Shown here: positions 3-20,840 of the stretch, one piece after another
How positions within the stretch are numbered: position 1 is the stretch's first letter
How the letters are laid out: every line of letters starts with the position of its first letter
Source: Gammaproteobacteria bacterium
GTDB lineage: Bacteria > Pseudomonadota > Gammaproteobacteria > Burkholderiales > Thiobacillaceae
Assembly: GCA_018831045.1 (NCBI GenBank)
Contig: JAHJRA010000044.1
Location: 20,731 to 84,730, forward strand
Direction: 5' to 3'
Length of the DNA stretch: 64,000 nt
Program-made: the position numbers and the translations under genes
Notes under the pieces: generated by a model
Database searches by the model: none
Told to the model about the DNA's origin: nothing
The model's input: only the letters and a program-made list of their open reading frames with translations

Positions 3-1682
3 GGCTGGGCGCCTTACTTTGTCGAAGGCTCGGACCCCCTGACCATGCATGCCGCGATGGCCGGGGTGCTGGAGCAGTGCGTGCTGGAGATCCGCCGGAT
101 TCAGGATGAAGCCCGCGCCAGCGGCATTCCTGGCCGTCCGCGCTGGCCGATGATCGTGCTGCGCTCACCCAAAGGCTGGACCGGTCCTGCCGAGGTCGAT
201 GGCAAGAAAGTCGAGGGGTTCTGGCGTGCGCACCAAGTGCCGATTGCCGACGTGCGCAACAATCCGGCGCATCTGCAGCAACTGGAAGCCTGGCTGCACA
301 GTTACAGGCCGGATGAGCTGTTCGACGCGGCGGGTCGCCTGCGTCCCGAACTGAAGGCGCTGGCGCCCACGGGCAACCGTCGCATGAGCGCCAACCCGCA
401 TGCCAACGGCGGCCTGCTGCGGCGCGCGCTGCGCATGCCGGATTTCCGCGACTACGCAGCCGAGCTGCCCGGCCCCGGCAAGATCACGGCGGAAAACACC
501 CGCCCGCTGGGCAAGCTGCTGCGCGACGTGATGGCCGGGAACATGCACAATTTCCGCGTGTTCGGCCCGGACGAAAACGCGTCCAACAAGCTCGACAACC
601 TGTACGAAGTCACCCAAAAAACCTGGCTCGCCGATATCTATCCGGAAGACGCGGGCGGCAGCGAACTGTCGCCCGACGGCCGGGTGATGGAAATGCTGTC
701 CGAACACACCCTGGAAGGCTGGCTGGAAGGGTATCTGCTCACCGGCCGGCACGGCTTTTTCTCCACCTATGAAGCCTTCGTCCACATCATCGATTCGATG
801 TTCAACCAGCACGCCAAGTGGCTGGCGATGTCGAGCAAGGTGCCGTGGCGGGCGCCAGTGTCATCGCTCAACCTGCTGATCACTTCGACCGTCTGGCGCC
901 AGGACCACAACGGCTTCACCCATCAGGACCCGGGTTTTCTCGACGTGGTGGTGAACAAGAGTCCCGCCGTCACCCGCATCTACCTGCCGCCGGATGTGAA
1001 CACGCTGCTGGTGACCTCCGCCCAGTGTCTGGAGAGCACCGATCTCATCAACGTCATCGTCTGCGACAAGCAGAAGCACCTGCAGTACCTCGACATGAAC
1101 GCGGCGATCAAGCACTGCACCAAGGGCATCGGCATCTGGGAATGGGCCAGCAACGACGATGGGGCGGAACCCGACGTGGTGATGGCCAGCGCCGGCGACA
1201 TTCCCACCAAGGAAGCGCTGGCGGCGACGGTGCTGCTGCGCGAGCACTTCCCCGGTCTCAAGGTGCGCTTCATCAACGTGGTCGATCTGTACAAGCTGAC
1301 CCCGGCCAGTGAACACCCGCACGGGCTCAGCGACAAGGATTTCGACAGCCTGTTCACGCTCGACAAGCCGGTGATCTTCAACTTCCACGGCTATCCCTGG
1401 CTGATCCATCGCCTGGCCTACCGCCGCCACAATCATGACAACCTGCACGTGCGCGGCTACAAGGAAAAGGGCAGCATCAACACGCCGCTGGAACTGGCGA
1501 TCCAGAATGAGATCGACCGCTTCAGCCTCGCCATCGACGTGATCGACCGTATCCCCGCCCTGCGCGTGGCGGGTGCCCACGTCAAGGAAAAGCTGCGCGA
1601 CAGGCAGATCGAGTGCCGCAATTACGCGTATGAACACGGTGTCGACCTGCCCGAGGCGGATGCCTGGGTGTGGCCTTACTGA
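3..1682 (+). CDS. xfp: Phosphoketolase (XFP family), 5'-truncated by the window edge
   Basis: Frame is open from base 3. Motifs [49 protein letters not shown] and GYKEKG are typical of XFP. Confidence 0.95.
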
Positions 1683-1707
1683 CGCATTGCGCACCGGAAA
1701 GGCGACC

Positions 1708-4182
1708 ATGTCTGAATATGCCGAACGTTCCCTGCATACCCGTACCGCGCGGTCGGTCGATGCCTTGCGCCGCTCGTTTACAGACAACCTCTACTACCTC
1801 ACTGGGCGTTCGTTCGAGAAGGCGGCTCCCCACGACTTTTACACGGCGCTGGCCTACACCGTGCGTGATCGCATGCTGGAGCGCTACATCCTCACCAGCG
1901 AGCGCTACCGGCAGAACAGCAACCGCATGGTCTGCTATTTTTCGGCAGAGTTTTTGCTGGGGCCGCATCTGGGCAACAACATTCTCAATCTGGGCCTGCG
2001 CGACAACCTTGACGAAGCCTTGCGCGAACTGGGGCTGGATCTGGAAACCCTGCTGCAGCAGGAGCAGGAGCCGGGGCTGGGTAATGGCGGTCTGGGTCGC
2101 CTCGCCGCCTGTTATCTGGATTCGCTGGCCACGCTTGAAATCCCGGCGGTGGGTTACGGCATCCGCTACGAGTTCGGCCTGTTCGACCAGCACATCAAGG
2201 ATGGCTGGCAGGTGGAAGTGACCGATGCCTGGCTGCGCGACGGCAACCCCTGGGAGTTGCAGAACCGTCACCAGCGCTATCCGGTCAAGCTGGGCGGCCA
2301 TACCGAAACCTACCGCGACAGGCATGACCGCTTGCGGGTCAGGTGGACGTCCGACTGCACGGTCTACGGCGTGGCCTACGACACGCCCATCCTTGGCTAC
2401 GGCGTCAACAACGTCAACCTGCTGCGGCTGTGGAAATCGGAGGCGCACGATTCCTTCGATTTCCAGGCGTTCAATATCGGCAATTACTACGGCGCCGTCG
2501 AAGCCATGGTGATGGCCGAAAACCTGACCAAGGTGCTGTATCCCAACGACGACCCCGAGGCGGGCAAGGAACTGCGCCTCAAGCAGCAGTATTTCTTTGT
2601 GTCGTGTTCGCTGCAGGACATGGTGCGGATCACCCTGCGCGAGCTGGGCGACCTTGCGCGCTTTGCCGACAAATACGTTGCCCAGCTCAACGACACCCAT
2701 CCGGCCATTGCCGTGCCGGAGTTGATGCGCCTGCTGGTGGACGAGCACGGCTTCCCCTGGGAACAGGCGTGGGACATCACCCGCACGAGTTTCGCCTACA
2801 CCAACCACACGCTGTTGCCAGAGGCACTGGAGACCTGGCCGCTGGAGATGTTCCGACGCATCCTGCCGCGCCATCTCGAGATTATTTACGAGATCAACCG
2901 CCGTTTTCTCGACGAAGTGCGCATGCGCTTTCTTGACGACGAGACACGCATCGAGCGCATGTCGCTGATTGCCGAGGGACCTGTTCGAAGCGTTCGCATG
3001 GCGCATCTTGCCGCCGTCGGCAGCTTTTCCATCAATGGCGTGGCAGCCTTGCACACCGAGCTGCTGAAGACCACGATCCTGCGTGATTTTCACGAACTCT
3101 GGCCGGAAAAGTTCAACAACAAGACCAACGGCGTCACGCCGCGCCGCTTTGTCGCCCTGGCCAATCCGCCGCTGACCCGGCTGATCGAGGAGACCCTCGA
3201 CAGCGACTGGCTGCGCAAGCTGGAGTTGCTGCAGCGTCTGGAACCCTGGGCCGACGATGCGGCTTTCCGGACGCGCTGGAGGGAGGTCAAACTGATGGCC
3301 AAGCAGCAATTGGCCCGCTTCATCAGGGAAATTGTCGGGATTACGGTTGATCCTGCGTCGCTGTTCGATATCCAGGCCAAGCGCATTCATGAATACAAAC
3401 GCCAGCATCTGAACCTGCTGCACATTATCAGCCGCTATAGCCGCCTGAAGGGTAGCCCGAATGCGGATGCCGCGCCGCGCACCTTCATCTTTAGCGGCAA
3501 GGCTGCGCCCAGTTACCGGATGGCCAAGCTGATCATCAAGCTGATCCATGCCGTGGCCGACGTGGTGAACCGCGACCCGCAGGTCAACCAGCTGATGAAA
3601 GTGGTGTTCATCCCCGATTTCAATGTCAAGAATGCCCAGCGCATCTATCCGGCTGCCGACCTGTCCGAGCAGATTTCTACCGCCGGCAAGGAAGCCTCGG
3701 GTACCGGCAACATGAAATTCTCGATGAACGGCGCGCTCACCATCGGCACGCTGGATGGCGCCAACGTCGAGATCCGCGACGCGGTAGGGGAAGAAAATTT
3801 TTTCCTGTTCGGCCTGACAGCCGGGCAGGTACAGGCGCGGCTGGATCAGGGCTATGTACCCGGTCAGTTGATCGAGGCCGATCCCGAACTGCGGCATGCG
3901 CTTGACCTGATCGACTCCGGCCTGTTTTCGCATGGCGACCGGCAGTTGTTTGCGCCGCTCACGCGCAAACTGCGCGAGCAGGATCCGTATCTGGTCTGCG
4001 CCGACTACCGCGCGTATGTGGATTGCCAGGATACGGTCGACCGCCTGTATCGCGACGCCGAACGGTGGACCCGCACGTCCATCCTCAACGTGGCACGCAT
4101 CGGCCGTTTTTCATCCGACCGCGCCATTCATGAGTATGCCGAGGACATCTGGCGGGTTCGGGCGGTGCCCGTCAAAGGCTGA
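1708..4182 (+). CDS. glgP: Glycogen/starch/alpha-glucan phosphorylase
   Basis: GLGNGGLGRLAAC, QLNDTHP, NKTNGVTPRR, KRIHEYKRQ and the PLP-lysine motif EASGTGNMKF. Start placed at the ATG after the xfp stop. Confidence 0.97.
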   Translation: MSEYAERSLHTRTARSVDALRRSFTDNLYYLTGRSFEKAAPHDFYTALAYTVRDRMLERYILTSERYRQNSNRMVCYFSAEFLLGPHLGNNILNLGLRDNLDEALRELGLDLETLLQQEQEPGLGNGGLGRLAACYLDSLATLEIPAVGYGIRYEFGLFDQHIKDGWQVEVTDAWLRDGNPWELQNRHQRYPVKLGGHTETYRDRHDRLRVRWTSDCTVYGVAYDTPILGYGVNNVNLLRLWKSEAHDSFDFQAFNIGNYYGAVEAMVMAENLTKVLYPNDDPEAGKELRLKQQYFFVSCSLQDMVRITLRELGDLARFADKYVAQLNDTHPAIAVPELMRLLVDEHGFPWEQAWDITRTSFAYTNHTLLPEALETWPLEMFRRILPRHLEIIYEINRRFLDEVRMRFLDDETRIERMSLIAEGPVRSVRMAHLAAVGSFSINGVAALHTELLKTTILRDFHELWPEKFNNKTNGVTPRRFVALANPPLTRLIEETLDSDWLRKLELLQRLEPWADDAAFRTRWREVKLMAKQQLARFIREIVGITVDPASLFDIQAKRIHEYKRQHLNLLHIISRYSRLKGSPNADAAPRTFIFSGKAAPSYRMAKLIIKLIHAVADVVNRDPQVNQLMKVVFIPDFNVKNAQRIYPAADLSEQISTAGKEASGTGNMKFSMNGALTIGTLDGANVEIRDAVGEENFFLFGLTAGQVQARLDQGYVPGQLIEADPELRHALDLIDSGLFSHGDRQLFAPLTRKLREQDPYLVCADYRAYVDCQDTVDRLYRDAERWTRTSILNVARIGRFSSDRAIHEYAEDIWRVRAVPVKG

Positions 4183-4192
4183 AGCCTCGGCG

Positions 4193-4555
4193 CTACAAGC
4201 GGTTTGTCGTTGACGCTGTGGGTTGAGGGACGGACAGCAGGCTGTCGGTGAGCGTCTGCATGCATGCGACATGCCGCGCTTCGGCCTGCTGGAATGCAAC
4301 GATCAATTGTTCCGCTGCTGCGGTCAGACGGCTGCCCGCCGGATCACTTTGCACCAGCGGGGTTTGCCACGCGCTGTTCATGGCATCCACCGCATCCCAC
4401 GCCGCCTTGTAGCTCATCTTCATTGCCTTGGCCGCTTTGGAAATGGAGCCAGTTTCGCGGATGCGCTGCAACAGCTCGATCCGGCCGCGGCCGAGGAAGT
4501 TTTTGCCGTCGAGCGTGAGCCAGAAACGGCCATCGACTTTGAGTTGGGGATGCAT
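4193..4555 (-). CDS. ModE-family winged-helix regulator, N-terminal domain only
   Basis: GRGRIELLQRIRETGSISKAAKAMKMSYKAAWDAVDAMN matches the ModE HTH. No TOBE domain follows. Confidence 0.85.
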   Translation of the reverse strand: MHPQLKVDGRFWLTLDGKNFLGRGRIELLQRIRETGSISKAAKAMKMSYKAAWDAVDAMNSAWQTPLVQSDPAGSRLTAAAEQLIVAFQQAEARHVACMQTLTDSLLSVPQPTASTTNRL

Positions 4556-4635
4556 CGCCCGAGTGTAGCAAACGAGGCTTGCGTGTCTGCGCGTATATGG
4601 CCGAAAATCGAGCCTCCTATCCACGAGAGACCGCC

Positions 4636-5094
4636 ATGAAAAGAACCCTCGCTGCGTGCGTCCTGTTTGGCCTGTCGATGCCTGCGCTGGCAACGGATGC
4701 TTATTTCGTCCTGTTTAAAACGCAGGGGGATTTCTCGTTTGTGCGCGATTCGCTGCAAGTCGCGATCGAAGGCAAAGGACTGGTGATCAATCACACCAAC
4801 CAGATTGCCGGGATGCTGGAGCGTACCGGCAAGGATCTGGGCGCGACCCAACAGGTTTTTACGAATGGCGAGCAGTTCGAGTTTTGCAGTGCAACGATTT
4901 CGCGCGCGATGATGGAAGCCGATCCGCATGCGATCACGATGTGCCCATACATCGTTTCGGTGTACACGATTCCCGGCGACGCCAACGTGTACGTTGCTTA
5001 CCGCAAACCCGGCCCTACCCAGAACCCGGCGCTGCAAAAGGCGCTGGATCAGGTTGAAACGCTGTTGACCGAGATCATTGAAGAGGCGCTGTAA
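4636..5094 (+). CDS. Exported DUF302-family protein
   Basis: Signal peptide plus EFCSA...CPY motifs. Confidence 0.8.
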   Translation: MKRTLAACVLFGLSMPALATDAYFVLFKTQGDFSFVRDSLQVAIEGKGLVINHTNQIAGMLERTGKDLGATQQVFTNGEQFEFCSATISRAMMEADPHAITMCPYIVSVYTIPGDANVYVAYRKPGPTQNPALQKALDQVETLLTEIIEEAL

Positions 5095-5118: not shown

Positions 5119-6315
5119 TCAGCCCGGTTTGCCGTCAACCCTGGGGCGCAGCAGCATGGGCGCGTAGAGCGCCGCAAACAGGCCGAATGCCACTATCCAC
5201 AGAAATCCGGCGACCACGGTGCCGGCAAGATAGTCGGCCGGAACCAGCAGCGGCAAAGCGATGCGACTCAAGGCGGCGCAGTTGACCGCCATGAAAGCCA
5301 GTGTCATCAGCGGGGCGGGTTCCAGCATGCGTCCGGTGTGACCGAGCGATACCCGTGCCATCATGCCCAGGGTTAACGCGCCGATGGCACCTGCAGTGAA
5401 GGCATGCAGGGCGCTGCTGGCAGGGACATCCAGCCCGATGGCAGACAGCGTCATCAGGGCGAAGCCGAGCACGATCCAGGCATATCCCATGTGCAAAATC
5501 CACAACAAGGGCACTGACCACAGCTTGCCGGTGTACCAGCCTGCCAGCCGCACCCCGTGCATGACCGCAGCGACAGCGGCGAACAGCGCAGTGACCGGGG
5601 AAACCGGCGCAACCAGTGCCGCGGCCAGTGCACCGAGGGTGGCGACGGGCAGCAGGCGTTCGAGGAGGGGCCAGCGGCGGGCGCGGCTGCCGAGCTTATT
5701 GTCGGTAAAGCTGGGAATCACCCGTCCCCCCATCACCATCATCATGGCCACCACCGCATAGGCTGCAAGATGCAGTCCGGTTCGCGCCGTGCCGGTTGTC
5801 CAGCCCAGTGCATCGGCATGCACCAGCGCATTGGCAAAAGCCAGCGCCAGCAGCATGAGAGGGAAGGGGTAGTTGTGAAATTGCCTGGCCTTGAGGATGG
5901 GCACGGCCAGCACAGCCGCCAAAACTGGTAGAAAAGCCAGGTCGAGCCATGCCACCAGCCCGATCGGCAGACCCGGAATCAGAAATCCCAGTCGTCCCGC
6001 CAGCCACAGCAGGAACAGCGCCGCCAGCGGCGCGCCGGAAGGCATGCGGATGCCGGTCCAGTTCTGTGTGGCAGTAAGCAGGAAACCGGCGATGACCGCC
6101 ACGGCGAAGCCAAACAGCATTTCATGGCCGTGCCAGATGGCAGGCGGCAGTTCGGCGGGAATCAGACTGCCGTGCAGTACCGCCATCCACAAGCCCATCA
6201 GCAATAGGGAAAACAGGCCGGCAGCCAGAAAGAACGGCCGGAAACCCAGAGCAAAGGGTGCCCAGCGCAGAGGGGATGCGTGTTTGAGCGGGTCTTCGAT
6301 GTGCAGCAAGGCCAT
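5119..6315 (-). CDS. nnrS: NnrS family heme-copper membrane protein (NO stress)
   Basis: GFRPFFL, WHGHEMLFGF, GFLLTA.QNWTG, GGRVIPSFT and MMARVSLGHTGR. Confidence 0.93.
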   Translation of the reverse strand: MALLHIEDPLKHASPLRWAPFALGFRPFFLAAGLFSLLLMGLWMAVLHGSLIPAELPPAIWHGHEMLFGFAVAVIAGFLLTATQNWTGIRMPSGAPLAALFLLWLAGRLGFLIPGLPIGLVAWLDLAFLPVLAAVLAVPILKARQFHNYPFPLMLLALAFANALVHADALGWTTGTARTGLHLAAYAVVAMMMVMGGRVIPSFTDNKLGSRARRWPLLERLLPVATLGALAAALVAPVSPVTALFAAVAAVMHGVRLAGWYTGKLWSVPLLWILHMGYAWIVLGFALMTLSAIGLDVPASSALHAFTAGAIGALTLGMMARVSLGHTGRMLEPAPLMTLAFMAVNCAALSRIALPLLVPADYLAGTVVAGFLWIVAFGLFAALYAPMLLRPRVDGKPG

Positions 6316-6356
6316 GGTGTTTTCCGGGGTAAATACGTGAGGTGAGCAGGAAGGGG

Positions 6357-6674
6357 TCAGCCGGTGCTCCAGGCACGTGGCCGCCGCATGCCGGCGATTT
6401 TACAGGCTTGTTTCACGTAGCCGTACGGATAGAGCTGGAACAGTTTCTTCTGCGCTTCCTTGCCCACCCGCTCGGCCAGATGCTTGATGACGAAACGCGC
6501 ATCGGCGATGACCTGATGCTCCTCGTAGTATGCGCGCATGAAATGGATTGTGTCCCAGTGGTCATCGGTGAGCTGGATGTTCTCCTCCTCGGCGAGGGCG
6601 CGCGCCACGTCCTCGTTCCAGTCTGCGGGTTCGACCAGATAGCCTTCGGCATCGCGTTCGGGCAGGGTGCTCAT
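6357..6674 (-). CDS. TusE/DsrC/DsvC family protein lacking the C-terminal Cys (RspA-like)
   Basis: RDAEGYL...WNEDVA, LTDDHW..I.F.R.YY and LYPYGYVKQACKIAG; ends RPRAWSTG. AGGAGA RBS lies before the ATG at 6674. Confidence 0.88.
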   Translation of the reverse strand: MSTLPERDAEGYLVEPADWNEDVARALAEEENIQLTDDHWDTIHFMRAYYEEHQVIADARFVIKHLAERVGKEAQKKLFQLYPYGYVKQACKIAGMRRPRAWSTG

Positions 6675-6722
6675 CGGGATTCTCCTGTGTGTGGGTTCAT
6701 GCATTCTGACAGCCGGGTGGAC

Positions 6723-8270
6723 TCAGGTGCCGCCGCCGTGGAATTCGACGCCGGGCTGGCGTTCCGGCAGGTCGGCTACCAGCAACTCGCGCCGTGCGAT
6801 GGCCAGTGCCTCGACACTGGATGCGTTCAGATACGTTTTGGCATCGGACACAGCCGCCGCCAGCAACTCGGCTGCCAGCGCGTCGGGTTCGCGCCCCAGC
6901 GATCTGGCCAGCGCCCGCAGTTCGGTGCATGGATCCTGCGGCAGGCGGATTTCCAGCGGTTTTCCTTTGCTGGCGGCAAGCGGAACGGCGGCGGCCGCGC
7001 CCGGCTCGGCCAGTACCTGGCTCATCACGCGGGCGATCTGCGAGGCGGCTGACGGCAACGGGGTACCGGGCTGCAAGCGGATCTTGTTGATGAAATATTT
7101 CTCGAAATCGATCTTGGCCTGATGTACCCAACGGCCCTGGCGCATCCAGTTGATATCGCGCAAGGGCACCTGCGGCTCGGACAGATACGCGGCGCCGTTG
7201 TTGCCCATGTCAGAGAGCCACTTGGCGCGCTGTGGTACGTAGCTCACCAGCGGCGCGTCGCTGATCAGGGCGAGGATGTTCTGCACCACGATCTCGCCGG
7301 CTTTCGAAATCGAATACACCGAGTCGGGCGCACCCACCGGCACCGGCGTTTGATCGACCGCCGGTTGCGCCACGCAGGCGCCCAGCGCGAACACGTTGGG
7401 GTAATCGGGGTTGCGCAGGTATTCGTCCACCACCACCAGCCCGCGTTCGTTGACCAGTCCGGTTGCCGTCCGCACCCCGGGCACGCCGCCGAAAGCCGGC
7501 CAGACCATCGAATAGGCATAGGGCAGGGTGTGGGTCTGTTTTTCGTTGCCGGCTGCATCAAGCTCGATGACATGGAGGCTGTCCTTGTCGATGCGAACCA
7601 TGCGCGCATTGCAGATCACGCTGATCTTGGTGTCGACCAAGGCGGCGGTCACCGCACCGCGGCTGGCGCCTTCGCCACCGAGCCCGAGGTGGCCGGGCCA
7701 GGGTTCGGGCGTGACCAGGGTGATGGCCACCCGCTCGCGGATGTTGCGCCGCTTGAGGTCGGCGTCGATCAGGAAGGCATATTCGTAGAGCGGCCCCAGC
7801 ACGCTGGCGCCGGGTGCCGCGCCAATCACGATGGGTCCGGGATGGCGGACAAATTCGCGATAGGCGGCGAGCGCCTGCTCGGCCTGGTCGACGTGGATCA
7901 CCGAGTGGGTGTGCTCGGCCAGACCGGGGATGGCGTCGGTCAGCCCGGCCACCCCGGTGGCGATCAGCAGGGTGTCGTAGAACAGCACATCGCCGTTTTC
8001 CAGATCGACCTGGATGACATCGGGCTGGATGCGTTTGACTGCGCTGTGGATGAACTTGATGCCGCGCGATTCGAGACAGGGTCCGATCGGAAAGGCGATG
8101 TCGGACCGCTCGCGCCAGCCCATGGCAACCCACGGGTTCGACGGCACGAAATGGAAGTAGGGTTTGTCCGACACCACCGTCACTTCGTCGTGCGGGCCCA
8201 GCTTGGCTTTCAGGGCGTAGGCCGCGGTTACGCCCGCGATGCCGGCTCCGAGGATGACAACATGAGTCAT
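6723..8270 (-). CDS. Sulfide:quinone oxidoreductase homolog with catalytic Cys substitutions and a C-terminal extension
   Basis: GAGIAG FAD motif, FVPSNPWV, GRWVH.AK..FEKYF. Positions where SQRs have Cys read SVIHV, GASVLGP and AKWLSDMG. Confidence 0.85.
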   Translation of the reverse strand: MTHVVILGAGIAGVTAAYALKAKLGPHDEVTVVSDKPYFHFVPSNPWVAMGWRERSDIAFPIGPCLESRGIKFIHSAVKRIQPDVIQVDLENGDVLFYDTLLIATGVAGLTDAIPGLAEHTHSVIHVDQAEQALAAYREFVRHPGPIVIGAAPGASVLGPLYEYAFLIDADLKRRNIRERVAITLVTPEPWPGHLGLGGEGASRGAVTAALVDTKISVICNARMVRIDKDSLHVIELDAAGNEKQTHTLPYAYSMVWPAFGGVPGVRTATGLVNERGLVVVDEYLRNPDYPNVFALGACVAQPAVDQTPVPVGAPDSVYSISKAGEIVVQNILALISDAPLVSYVPQRAKWLSDMGNNGAAYLSEPQVPLRDINWMRQGRWVHQAKIDFEKYFINKIRLQPGTPLPSAASQIARVMSQVLAEPGAAAAVPLAASKGKPLEIRLPQDPCTELRALARSLGREPDALAAELLAAAVSDAKTYLNASSVEALAIARRELLVADLPERQPGVEFHGGGT

Positions 8271-8294: not shown

Positions 8295-8978
8295 TCAGCT
8301 GCGCGGACGCACCAGCTGCCAGGTGCGCACCAGGTAGGTCGTGGCAGCAAAACCGCTCCACACATGCACCAGACGGGTGAACGGGAAAATGAGGAAGATC
8401 GTCATGCCGAGGAACAGGTGGGTCTTGAAGATCCAGCCCGCGCCCGCCAGCAGTTCGACCGCCCCGCCACGGAAGGTGACGATGCGCTGCCCCCATTCGG
8501 CAAGCCGGATCATCATGCTGCCGTCGAGATGCTGCGCCGACAGCGGGATGGTGGCGAGGCCCAGCAGCAGCTGCAGCCACAGTAGCAGGAGGATCACGAT
8601 GTCGCTGGTTTTGGAGGTGGCGCGGATGCGCGGCTCGGTCAGCCGGCGGTGCAACAGCAGGGACAGCCCGATGAAGGCCAGCACGCCCGCAGCGCCGCCA
8701 GAAACCATGGCCAGGATCTGCTTGGCACCAGCGCTGATGAAGGGCTCATACAGAAAGTGCGGCGTCAGCATGCCGACGAAATGGCCGAAGAACAGGAACA
8801 GCACGCCGATGTGGAACAGGTTGCTGCCCAGCCGCAGCTGGCCGCGTCGCAACAGCTGCGACGAATCGCTTTTCCACGTGTACTGCTCGCGGTCGAAGCG
8901 GATCAGGCTGCCAAGGAAAAAAATCGACAGGGCAATGTATGGATAAATGCCGAACAGAAAAGTTTGTGAGTAGGACAT
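8295..8978 (-). CDS. narI: Respiratory nitrate reductase gamma subunit (cytochrome b)
   Basis: TWKSDSSQLL, FHIG..FLFFGH and FPFTRLVH heme-b histidines. Confidence 0.97.
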   Translation of the reverse strand: MSYSQTFLFGIYPYIALSIFFLGSLIRFDREQYTWKSDSSQLLRRGQLRLGSNLFHIGVLFLFFGHFVGMLTPHFLYEPFISAGAKQILAMVSGGAAGVLAFIGLSLLLHRRLTEPRIRATSKTSDIVILLLLWLQLLLGLATIPLSAQHLDGSMMIRLAEWGQRIVTFRGGAVELLAGAGWIFKTHLFLGMTIFLIFPFTRLVHVWSGFAATTYLVRTWQLVRPRS

Positions 8979-20318: not shown

Positions 20319-20840
20319 TTACATGCTCCTGTCGTGAAGGGCGCCGCCGTCGAGCACCACCATGTCGGGGGTAATGTCGGCGAAACGATAAAGTTTTCCG
20401 CCATGCTCGGCGGCAAACTGGGTGGCATCTTTTTCCAGCGCGAAGCTGGCGATCGTTGGCCCCATGGAGCCGAGCCGTTTGCTGCCATACACGTAGTAGG
20501 CGGTCTTTGCGTCGATCCAGTGGTCCCGCGGCTGGTCCCAGTCTGTCTTGCCCATGTCCTGCACGAAAATACCGCGCACGGCCCGAACCTGTTCGGGATT
20601 GAGAAACATGTGGAACATTTCCACCGTGTCGCAGAAGTAATCCGGCTCGGCCTGCCCGGCATAATGAATCTGTGCCTTGGGGCCGGGATAGTCGGCGAGC
20701 AGCATGCCGTCCAGGCTGCAGGATGTGCCCTGATTGATCGCGAGGGGAACCACTGCGATTTCGGTTGCGGATTGCCCGCAACCCGCCAGTGCGGTGACAG
20801 CAAAGGCGGCGAGAATAAACTTATGTCGTACAGGTTTCAT
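20319..20840 (-). CDS. nosL: Nitrous oxide reductase accessory lipoprotein NosL
   Basis: Lipobox LAGC, CSLDGM..ADYPGPKAQ, YFCDT and GSMGP; follows nosY. Confidence 0.92.
   Translation of the reverse strand: MKPVRHKFILAAFAVTALAGCGQSATEIAVVPLAINQGTSCSLDGMLLADYPGPKAQIHYAGQAEPDYFCDTVEMFHMFLNPEQVRAVRGIFVQDMGKTDWDQPRDHWIDAKTAYYVYGSKRLGSMGPTIASFALEKDATQFAAEHGGKLYRFADITPDMVVLDGGALHDRSM

Follow-up and report, generated by a model that had tools for sequence, protein, structure and literature searches.

The 64,000-nucleotide stretch of DNA analysed here (positions 20,731 to 84,730 of contig JAHJRA010000044.1, assembly GCA_018831045.1, from a gammaproteobacterium of the Thiobacillaceae; hereafter the window) carries a block of co-oriented genes in the order narK1-narK2-narG-narH-narJ-narI-psSQR-DsrC-like-nnrS. 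The gene of interest, psSQR, is an open reading frame (ORF) on the minus strand (6723..8270) that encodes 515 amino acid residues: a Cys-less flavoprotein resembling sulfide:quinone oxidoreductase (SQR), to which a C-terminal extension, termed here the tail, is fused. The tail has a modular anatomy with a conservation profile of its own, is linked to the nar genes for respiratory nitrate reductase, and exists also as free-standing copies.

The Cys-less flavoprotein and the anatomy of its tail

The flavoprotein body (residues 1-404; 7059..8270, minus strand) matches Pyr_redox_2 (E 6e-21) and, in a phmmer search against the PDB sequences, aligns with residues 1-409 of the 434 of A. ferrooxidans SQR (3kpk/3t2y) at about 50% identity (E 1.6e-103 to 3kpk_A). 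It is an FAD-binding protein of the two-dinucleotide fold, homologous to the solved type I SQRs (A. ferrooxidans 3kpk/3t2y, Aquifex 3hyv), and shares with them the N-terminal GxGxxG motif, the equivalents of E166, H198 and F394, and a C-terminal amphipathic helix in the same place. It differs from them in that none of the three cysteines needed for sulfide oxidation is present (in the numbering of the A. ferrooxidans enzyme, Cys128, Cys160 and Cys356 are replaced by I, V and W, and in addition His132 by Gln and Phe357 by Leu), in the extra residues at the C-terminus, which number about 85-90, and in that its gene resides in a nar operon and not with sulfur genes. Conservation was analysed in 73 full-length psSQR orthologues from one-genome-per-species representatives, with tails 51-100% identical. 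E166, H198 and F394 are invariant in this set, and no orthologue has a cysteine in any of the catalytic columns: the Cys128 site is occupied by I, L, V, M or T, the Cys160 site by V or I, and the Cys356 position by Trp in 73/73. The same Trp is found in the distant tail-bearing fragments P0122, P0124, P0126 and P0130, and the catalytic cysteines are lost in every tail-bearing protein with a readable active-site region. As judged from these replacements, psSQR is predicted to be incapable of oxidising sulfide by the known mechanism. The term "pseudo-SQR", applied to the protein in an earlier interpretation of this DNA made from the letters alone (hereafter the sequence-only reading), is correct, because all three catalytic cysteines are replaced.

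The sequence-only reading also described an extension of about 115 residues following the FEKYFINK motif. The extension (residues 405-515) is real and occurs in 73/73 orthologues; its length was overestimated, since the chain of a genuine type I SQR itself runs about 25 residues beyond the FEKYFI(R/N)K motif, which leaves a net addition of about 85-90 residues. The interval proposed for it, 6723-7075, covers residues 399-515 and the stop codon, with the in-frame upper bound at 7076. The string on which the proposal was based, PLEIRLPQDPCTELRALARSLGREPDALAAELLAAAV, is found in the ORF at residues 438-474, while a third helix (residues 483-499) and a C-terminal peptide (residues 501-515) had been overlooked.

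The anatomy of the tail was derived from the alignment and from two monomer AlphaFold2 (AF2) models. The full-length model, calculated from a shallow alignment of 50 close homologues, has a predicted local distance difference test score (pLDDT) of 51 and shows helices at 411-421, 449-457, 462-480 and 483-499; its quality does not suffice for fold searching or for any judgement on docking of the tail to the flavoprotein that carries it. The model of the tail alone (80 residues, 436-515), calculated from an alignment of 11 diverse tails, has a pLDDT of 82, with residues 436-446 extended (about 65), helices at 447-458, 462-478 and 483-499 (about 90), and the remainder as coil. The first segment of the extension, all parts of which lie on the minus strand, is an amphipathic helix region (residues 405-424, PSAASQIARVMSQVL; 6999..7058), which occupies the place of the C-terminal membrane helix of SQR (whose chain reaches residue 434). 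It is followed by an Ala/Pro/Gly linker (residues 425-437; 6960..6998), hypervariable in sequence (27% identity, entropy 2.54), variable in length and predicted with pLDDT below 50. Next come a putative ribbon strand (residues 439-445, LEIRLPQ; 6936..6956), extended with pLDDT of about 65, and helix 1 (residues 447-458, PCTELRALARSL; 6897..6932), corresponding to residues 12-23 of the tail model (pLDDT about 90), in which L451 and A453 are near-invariant. Helix 2 (residues 462-478, PDALAAELLAAAVSDAK; 6837..6887; residues 27-43 of the tail model, pLDDT 92-95) carries the motif LAA.LL.AA..DA, the best-conserved section of the folded domain, free-standing forms included. Helix 3 (residues 483-499; 6774..6824; residues 48-64 of the tail model) contains R493, R494 and L497, which are invariant among close orthologues. 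The chain ends in a near-invariant peptide (residues 501-515, LPERQPGVEFHGGGT; 6726..6770) with the consensus LPE(R/N)QPGVEFHGGGT.

No other segment of psSQR is as conserved as this terminal peptide (98% identity, entropy 0.11). For comparison, the SQR body (residues 1-398) shows 81% identity and entropy 0.68, residues 399-424 show 53% and 1.49, the strand and helices 1 and 2 show 75-78% and 0.83-1.11, and helix 3 shows 61% and 1.05; the tail domain as a whole (residues 438-515) is on average 77% identical to that of the window protein. The peptide is predicted as coil, with pLDDT of about 58-77, falling below 50 for the last three residues, and the combination of invariance with a low-confidence coil is characteristic of short binding motifs. 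The C-terminal motif was not seen a second time in the window or in any of 86 loci. The full-length tail is kept almost throughout the 120 nearest database relatives (80-99% identity, nearly all from Thiobacillus), the few exceptions being truncated or frameshifted entries. In one unusual protein, P0136 (127 amino acids, encoded on 770-nt metagenome contigs), the final ~40 residues of the tail follow immediately on the first ~85 residues of psSQR, through either chimeric assembly or an internal deletion of natural origin.

Linkage to the nar operon and free-standing copies

In the window, psSQR is preceded directly, with a gap of 24 nt, by narI (8295..8978, minus strand; Nitrate_red_gam, E 2e-76). 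A gene for a DsrC/TusE-like protein (6357..6704, minus strand; DsrC, E 3e-33) lies 18 nt downstream of psSQR, and nnrS (5119..6315, minus strand; NnrS, E 5e-116) is the last gene of the block, within which no terminator signals above chance were detected. Positions 5671-6955, from nnrS through the DsrC-like gene into the tail, are covered by one metatranscriptome contig of a related strain, which suggests that these genes are co-transcribed, with the reservation that such libraries can contain DNA. We compared by tblastn 80 loci retained from a set with one representative genome per species (identity down to 51%); where a locus was of sufficient length, the order NarJ-NarI-psSQR with tail was almost always present. 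In loci of the Thiobacillus type, psSQR is followed by the DsrC-like gene and usually then by nnrS. In the clade of about 52% identity (Sulfuriferula and several metagenome-assembled genomes of Burkholderiales), a gene for a PpiC-type isomerase is inserted between narI and psSQR, and the DsrC-like gene is absent downstream.

An exhaustive phmmer search with the tail as query against 1.8 billion cluster representatives returned only 17 clusters at 50% identity, comprising fragments or full-length psSQR fusions and a few small proteins. The latter (P0129, P0135, P0137 and P0138) are free-standing tails of 109 residues, a length to which P0135 from C. tropicus extends upstream in frame. Each of them is colinear with the C-terminal 109 residues of the fusion and starts with the same amphipathic helix. 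When profiles of the divergent and of the free-standing tails were run in two additional word-indexed homology searches, only 4 and 12 proteins were obtained; the tail family is narrow, because these searches gave no new domain architectures. The free-standing gene of Chitinivorax sp. B and of C. tropicus is located in the arrangement narGHJI-ppiC-tail, and its product retains the C-terminal peptide as LPENQPGTEFVAGGT. No flavoprotein or SQR-like gene is called in the 16-18 kb around these genes, the rest of the genomes not having been searched. The tail is thus an autonomous module, which keeps its place at the end of the nar operon without an adjacent flavoprotein gene. The sulfur or quinone context in which the sequence-only reading had placed it gives way to a tie with narGHJI, with or without the flavoprotein.

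Several further features of the neighbourhood were recorded. The C-terminal arm of the DsrC/TusE-like protein, YGYVKQACKIAGM[RK]RPRAWSTG, is invariant in 61/63 orthologues; the protein keeps one cysteine, 13 residues before its end, and lacks the penultimate one. A penultimate cysteine is typical of DsrC/TusE, and because it is missing here, this neighbour is not a standard sulfur-relay DsrC. A locus from Hydrogenophilales bacterium RIFOXYD1_FULL_62_11 (L006, MGZO01000086.1) shows 97-99% protein identity to the window over psSQR, the DsrC-like protein and NnrS, which makes this Thiobacillus-like organism from groundwater, or one very closely related to it, the probable source of the window. 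Just past nnrS, in 4193..5094, there are a gene with a ModE/LysR-type helix-turn-helix (HTH) domain on the minus strand and a DUF302 gene on the plus strand, whose listed ORFs overlap; the true start of the former is probably later than listed, since its HTH match begins at residue 72. An ORF of 869 amino acids (1573..4182, plus strand) encodes a glycogen/carbohydrate phosphorylase (E = 0), and the ORF of 783 amino acids that overlaps it on the opposite strand (1582..3933, minus strand), with no family match, is probably spurious.

The fold of the tail and the question of DNA binding

The sequence-only reading assigned the tail to the ribbon-helix-helix (RHH) proteins of the CopG/Arc/MetJ type, and the topology on which this was founded is supported by the alignment pattern and by the monomer AF2 model. 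All clades share a hydrophobic-x-hydrophobic-x-hydrophobic strand, a helix, a short turn and a second helix, with the strand pattern [LIVM]-x-[IVA]-x-[LVI] represented by LEIRL, LEIPV, LRVPV, VQAPI and VSAPV, and the spacing G-x4-5-L..(E)LL..A fits the pattern of RHH helix 2. The strand is unpaired in the monomer model. Beyond the core, the tail resembles RHH antitoxins of the RelB/ParD type in having a further helix and a C-terminal peptide.

Library searches gave weak matches in the same register. The NCBIfam model of RelB-like antitoxins aligns its positions 1-43 with residues 7-49 of the tail in 4/24 diverse members, with 16-17 bits against a cut-off of 50, and hhalign pairs the tail strand-to-strand and helix-to-helix with CopG and ParD (P = 0.017 and 0.12, with the CopG and ParD sequences entered by hand). 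Foldseek comparison of the tail model with the PDB placed RHH proteins in 9 of the top 11 positions, namely AmrZ, CdbA (three times), TacA2, Arc (twice), VapB Rv0300 and CopG; all of them are below significance (best E 1.7, query-normalised TM 0.26-0.40, root mean square deviation 5.5-10.5 A). Against BFVD nothing significant was obtained, with a few RHH or antitoxin entries scattered in the list. Pfam returned no RHH family for the tail, for three variants or for 24 diverse members screened at E up to 10, nor any other meaningful family, and the profile of the tail family detected no RHH protein among all PDB sequences at E up to 10. The strongest library match obtained was the 64-residue PHROG profile of a phage protein family with no assigned function, phrog_5333, which matches 13/24 tails (best E 7.9e-5) over the strand and helices 1-3 (residues ~440-495; window ~6786..6953); two tail variants had no tblastn match in 50,697 phage genomes, and the members of phrog_5333 were not recovered in this way. 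We regard an RHH-like topology, as modelled, as plausible and somewhat favoured. The tail nevertheless is not recognised as a member of any known RHH family: it differs from all of them in lacking a significant match to an RHH model or structure and in being fused to the C-terminus of a membrane flavoprotein, and from the antitoxins in that no toxin gene is found near it. Its neighbours are narI and the DsrC-like gene or ppiC; a role as an antitoxin was rejected, since no toxin-like ORF stands beside it in the loci examined.

The sequence-only reading went on to propose that the fusion is a DNA-binding one-component sensor. To our knowledge, the only well-studied precedent for a fusion of a flavoprotein with an RHH domain is PutA. 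The trifunctional PutA is a peripheral-membrane, quinone-reducing flavoprotein linked to a small RHH-type domain, which switches between DNA and the membrane upon flavin reduction (PMC5293562). By analogy, the FAD of psSQR would sense the redox state of the quinone pool and the protein would move between the membrane and an operator bound by its tail, thereby controlling nar or other respiratory genes. The documented precedent, the RHH-like topology with its weak in-register matches, and the position of the gene in the nar operon, which would permit autoregulation, are all in agreement with such a switch. The loss of the catalytic cysteines with retention of E166, H198, F394 and the FAD motif likewise fits an enzyme turned into a sensor. 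The two proteins differ in that the RHH domain of PutA is N-terminal, basic and binds put operators, on an enzyme that is active, whereas the tail of psSQR is C-terminal and acidic, on a body without catalytic cysteines.

The residues expected to touch DNA speak against the PutA-like switch. The core of strand, helix 1 and helix 2 has a median net charge of -1 and an isoelectric point (pI) of 5.6, and the whole tail domain a net charge of -4 and a pI of 4.9; the corresponding values for Arc and CopG, calculated from sequences entered by hand, are +4 and +3, with pI of 9.5-10. The outward-facing positions of the ribbon are occupied by E, R or P, differ between clades, and include a conserved Glu and often Pro, and the strands of free-standing tails (PVQAPIG, MQVPITT) have no basic residue at all. 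The N-terminus of RHH helix 2 normally anchors the DNA phosphate through S, T, N or K; in the tail it reads E-P-D, E-E-N or S-D-P. Neither the polar or basic ribbon nor the phosphate anchor characteristic of DNA-binding RHH proteins is thus recognisable, and the strongest conservation falls in the C-terminal peptide, which has no role in the recognition of DNA by an RHH ribbon. An acidic core with variable ribbon residues is more easily reconciled with a structural role than with the reading of DNA. The absence of RHH matches in Pfam points in the same direction, as does the lack of an RHH-style array of operator repeats upstream of narG in two Chitinivorax genomes and of narK in the window, although this last result is not decisive; these three regions contain only an FNR-like palindrome and conserved blocks. 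We therefore consider a PutA-like switch improbable, albeit the strongest of the alternatives to the reading proposed below: on the features of its sequence, a DNA-binding one-component sensor is not supported, and the tail looks more like a protein-docking module.

As a separate observation, the regions upstream of narG in the two Chitinivorax genomes (~190-400 in L001 and ~1150-1310 in L086) share long near-identical blocks, GGCTAGTGCCAATGC.CTGATCTGTCAGCACTTC and ATAAGCTTCCAGCAT, which may represent a conserved leader or a regulatory element; the FNR-like palindrome of L001 is located at 190-216.

Possible roles of the tail

The reading that we favour, tentatively and at somewhat less than even probability, is that the tail combines an RHH-like pairing domain with a partner-capturing C-terminal peptide and serves the respiratory nitrate reductase. 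It would be an autonomous, membrane-proximal module carried by a catalytically dead SQR paralogue that has become a fixed accessory gene of the nar operon. Its amphipathic helix, probably derived from the membrane anchor of SQR, would hold the module at the membrane surface together with the linker; the RHH-like part would pair the two tails of an SQR-type dimer via a two-stranded ribbon, and the invariant C-terminal peptide, predicted to be unstructured, would fold onto a conserved partner as a short binding motif. The likeliest partner would be a component of NarGHI or a maturation factor, with a Nar subunit, NarJ and the nar-linked isomerase as candidates. A quinone-binding flavoprotein might thereby be held at the nitrate reductase, the layout of an RHH antitoxin having been reused for docking. 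This reading is favoured by the agreement of the RHH-like core, the extra helix and the C-terminal peptide with the layout of RelB/ParD-type antitoxins, to which the library matches are in register. It also draws on the conservation profile with its peak in the terminal peptide, on the gene order shared by the nar loci, on the autonomous copies of Chitinivorax, on the acidic core with its variable ribbon and on the loss of the catalytic cysteines from the tail-bearing proteins.

A number of points weigh against this reading. The RHH-like fold is not established, since every structural and profile match is below significance, and an RHH domain that does not bind DNA would itself be unusual. Synteny with nar would be equally expected of a nar regulator, and at its low quality the full-length AF2 model gives no indication for or against contact between the tail and the flavoprotein body. 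Finally, the free-standing protein P0137, encoded on two near-identical contigs (8001-8330 in L002 and L003), is not adjacent to nar genes: its gene comes after that of an ABC transporter and is convergent with one for an MCP.

Less probable than the PutA-like switch is an intramolecular arrangement, in which the C-terminal peptide would enter the vacant sulfide or quinone site of its own flavoprotein, rather as the arm of DsrC enters DsrAB, and would there inhibit the protein, gate the site or present a ligand. In its favour, the tail occurs only on Cys-less bodies, the invariant terminal peptide, in which His and Glu are present, is combined with a long flexible linker, and the neighbouring DsrC-like protein likewise has an invariant C-terminal arm. 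In the tail, as in DsrC/TusE with its swinging arm, a small helical domain ends in a C-terminal peptide that is short, flexible and invariant, but the peptide of the tail has no cysteine, and the two differ in fold and show no sequence similarity. The free-standing proteins of Chitinivorax keep the peptide where no SQR-like gene is called within the flanks given above, and no confident docking is seen in the full-length AF2 model.

It is very unlikely that the tail is a C-terminal glycine carrier, in which the terminal Thr would be removed and the carboxylate of Gly-Gly-Gly activated, e.g. as a ThiS/MoaD-like thiocarboxylate, for sulfur carriage or conjugation. The invariant ...GGGT ending in the orthologue set and the DsrC/TusE-like sulfur-relay neighbour in Thiobacillus would agree with it, but some members terminate in GGAP or GGST, no E1-like or JAMM genes are seen in the loci, and the nar-linked copies of Chitinivorax have no sulfur-oxidation genes in their 16-18 kb flanks. 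A carrier of the ThiS/MoaD kind was rejected because the fold of the tail is predicted to be helical and not beta-grasp. That the tail is a functionless stretch, i.e. low-complexity or disordered read-through, as its Ala-rich composition and the lack of a Pfam family might suggest, can be dismissed almost entirely, given its confidently predicted helices, its independent free-standing genes and its invariant terminal peptide, while its conservation in 73/73 species-level orthologues at the level of the enzyme body rules out a frameshift, read-through or gene-calling artefact.

A wider function of psSQR, which we regard as improbable, would be that the membrane-tethered Cys-less flavoprotein reads the redox state of the quinone pool, and that the dimeric RHH-like tail either signals to DNA in the manner of PutA or captures a Nar component or regulator through its invariant C-terminal peptide, thus tuning respiratory nitrate reduction in sulfur-oxidising denitrifiers.

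Proteins of this family are named "sulfide:quinone oxidoreductase" or "FAD-dependent oxidoreductase" in databases, and the 2006 genome paper of T. denitrificans reportedly lists Tbd_1407 as an SQR. We place the psSQR orthologue of this species at Tbd_1407, because narH is Tbd_1404 in the same numbering (PMC3753534, where a genetic system for this species is also cited). In the literature we found no description of the protein or its tail, of the missing cysteines or of the nar-linked free-standing form. Metabolic reconstructions that count the psSQR gene as an SQR are probably wrong. Thiobacillus and related bacteria are the drivers of denitrification linked to sulfur and iron in wastewater, sediments and aquifers. 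The free-standing 109-residue protein of Chitinivorax offers a simple system for studying the module alone, and the partner or operator of the tail, once identified, would add a new element to anaerobic respiration, be it an accessory subunit or tether of NarGHI or a redox-sensing switch.

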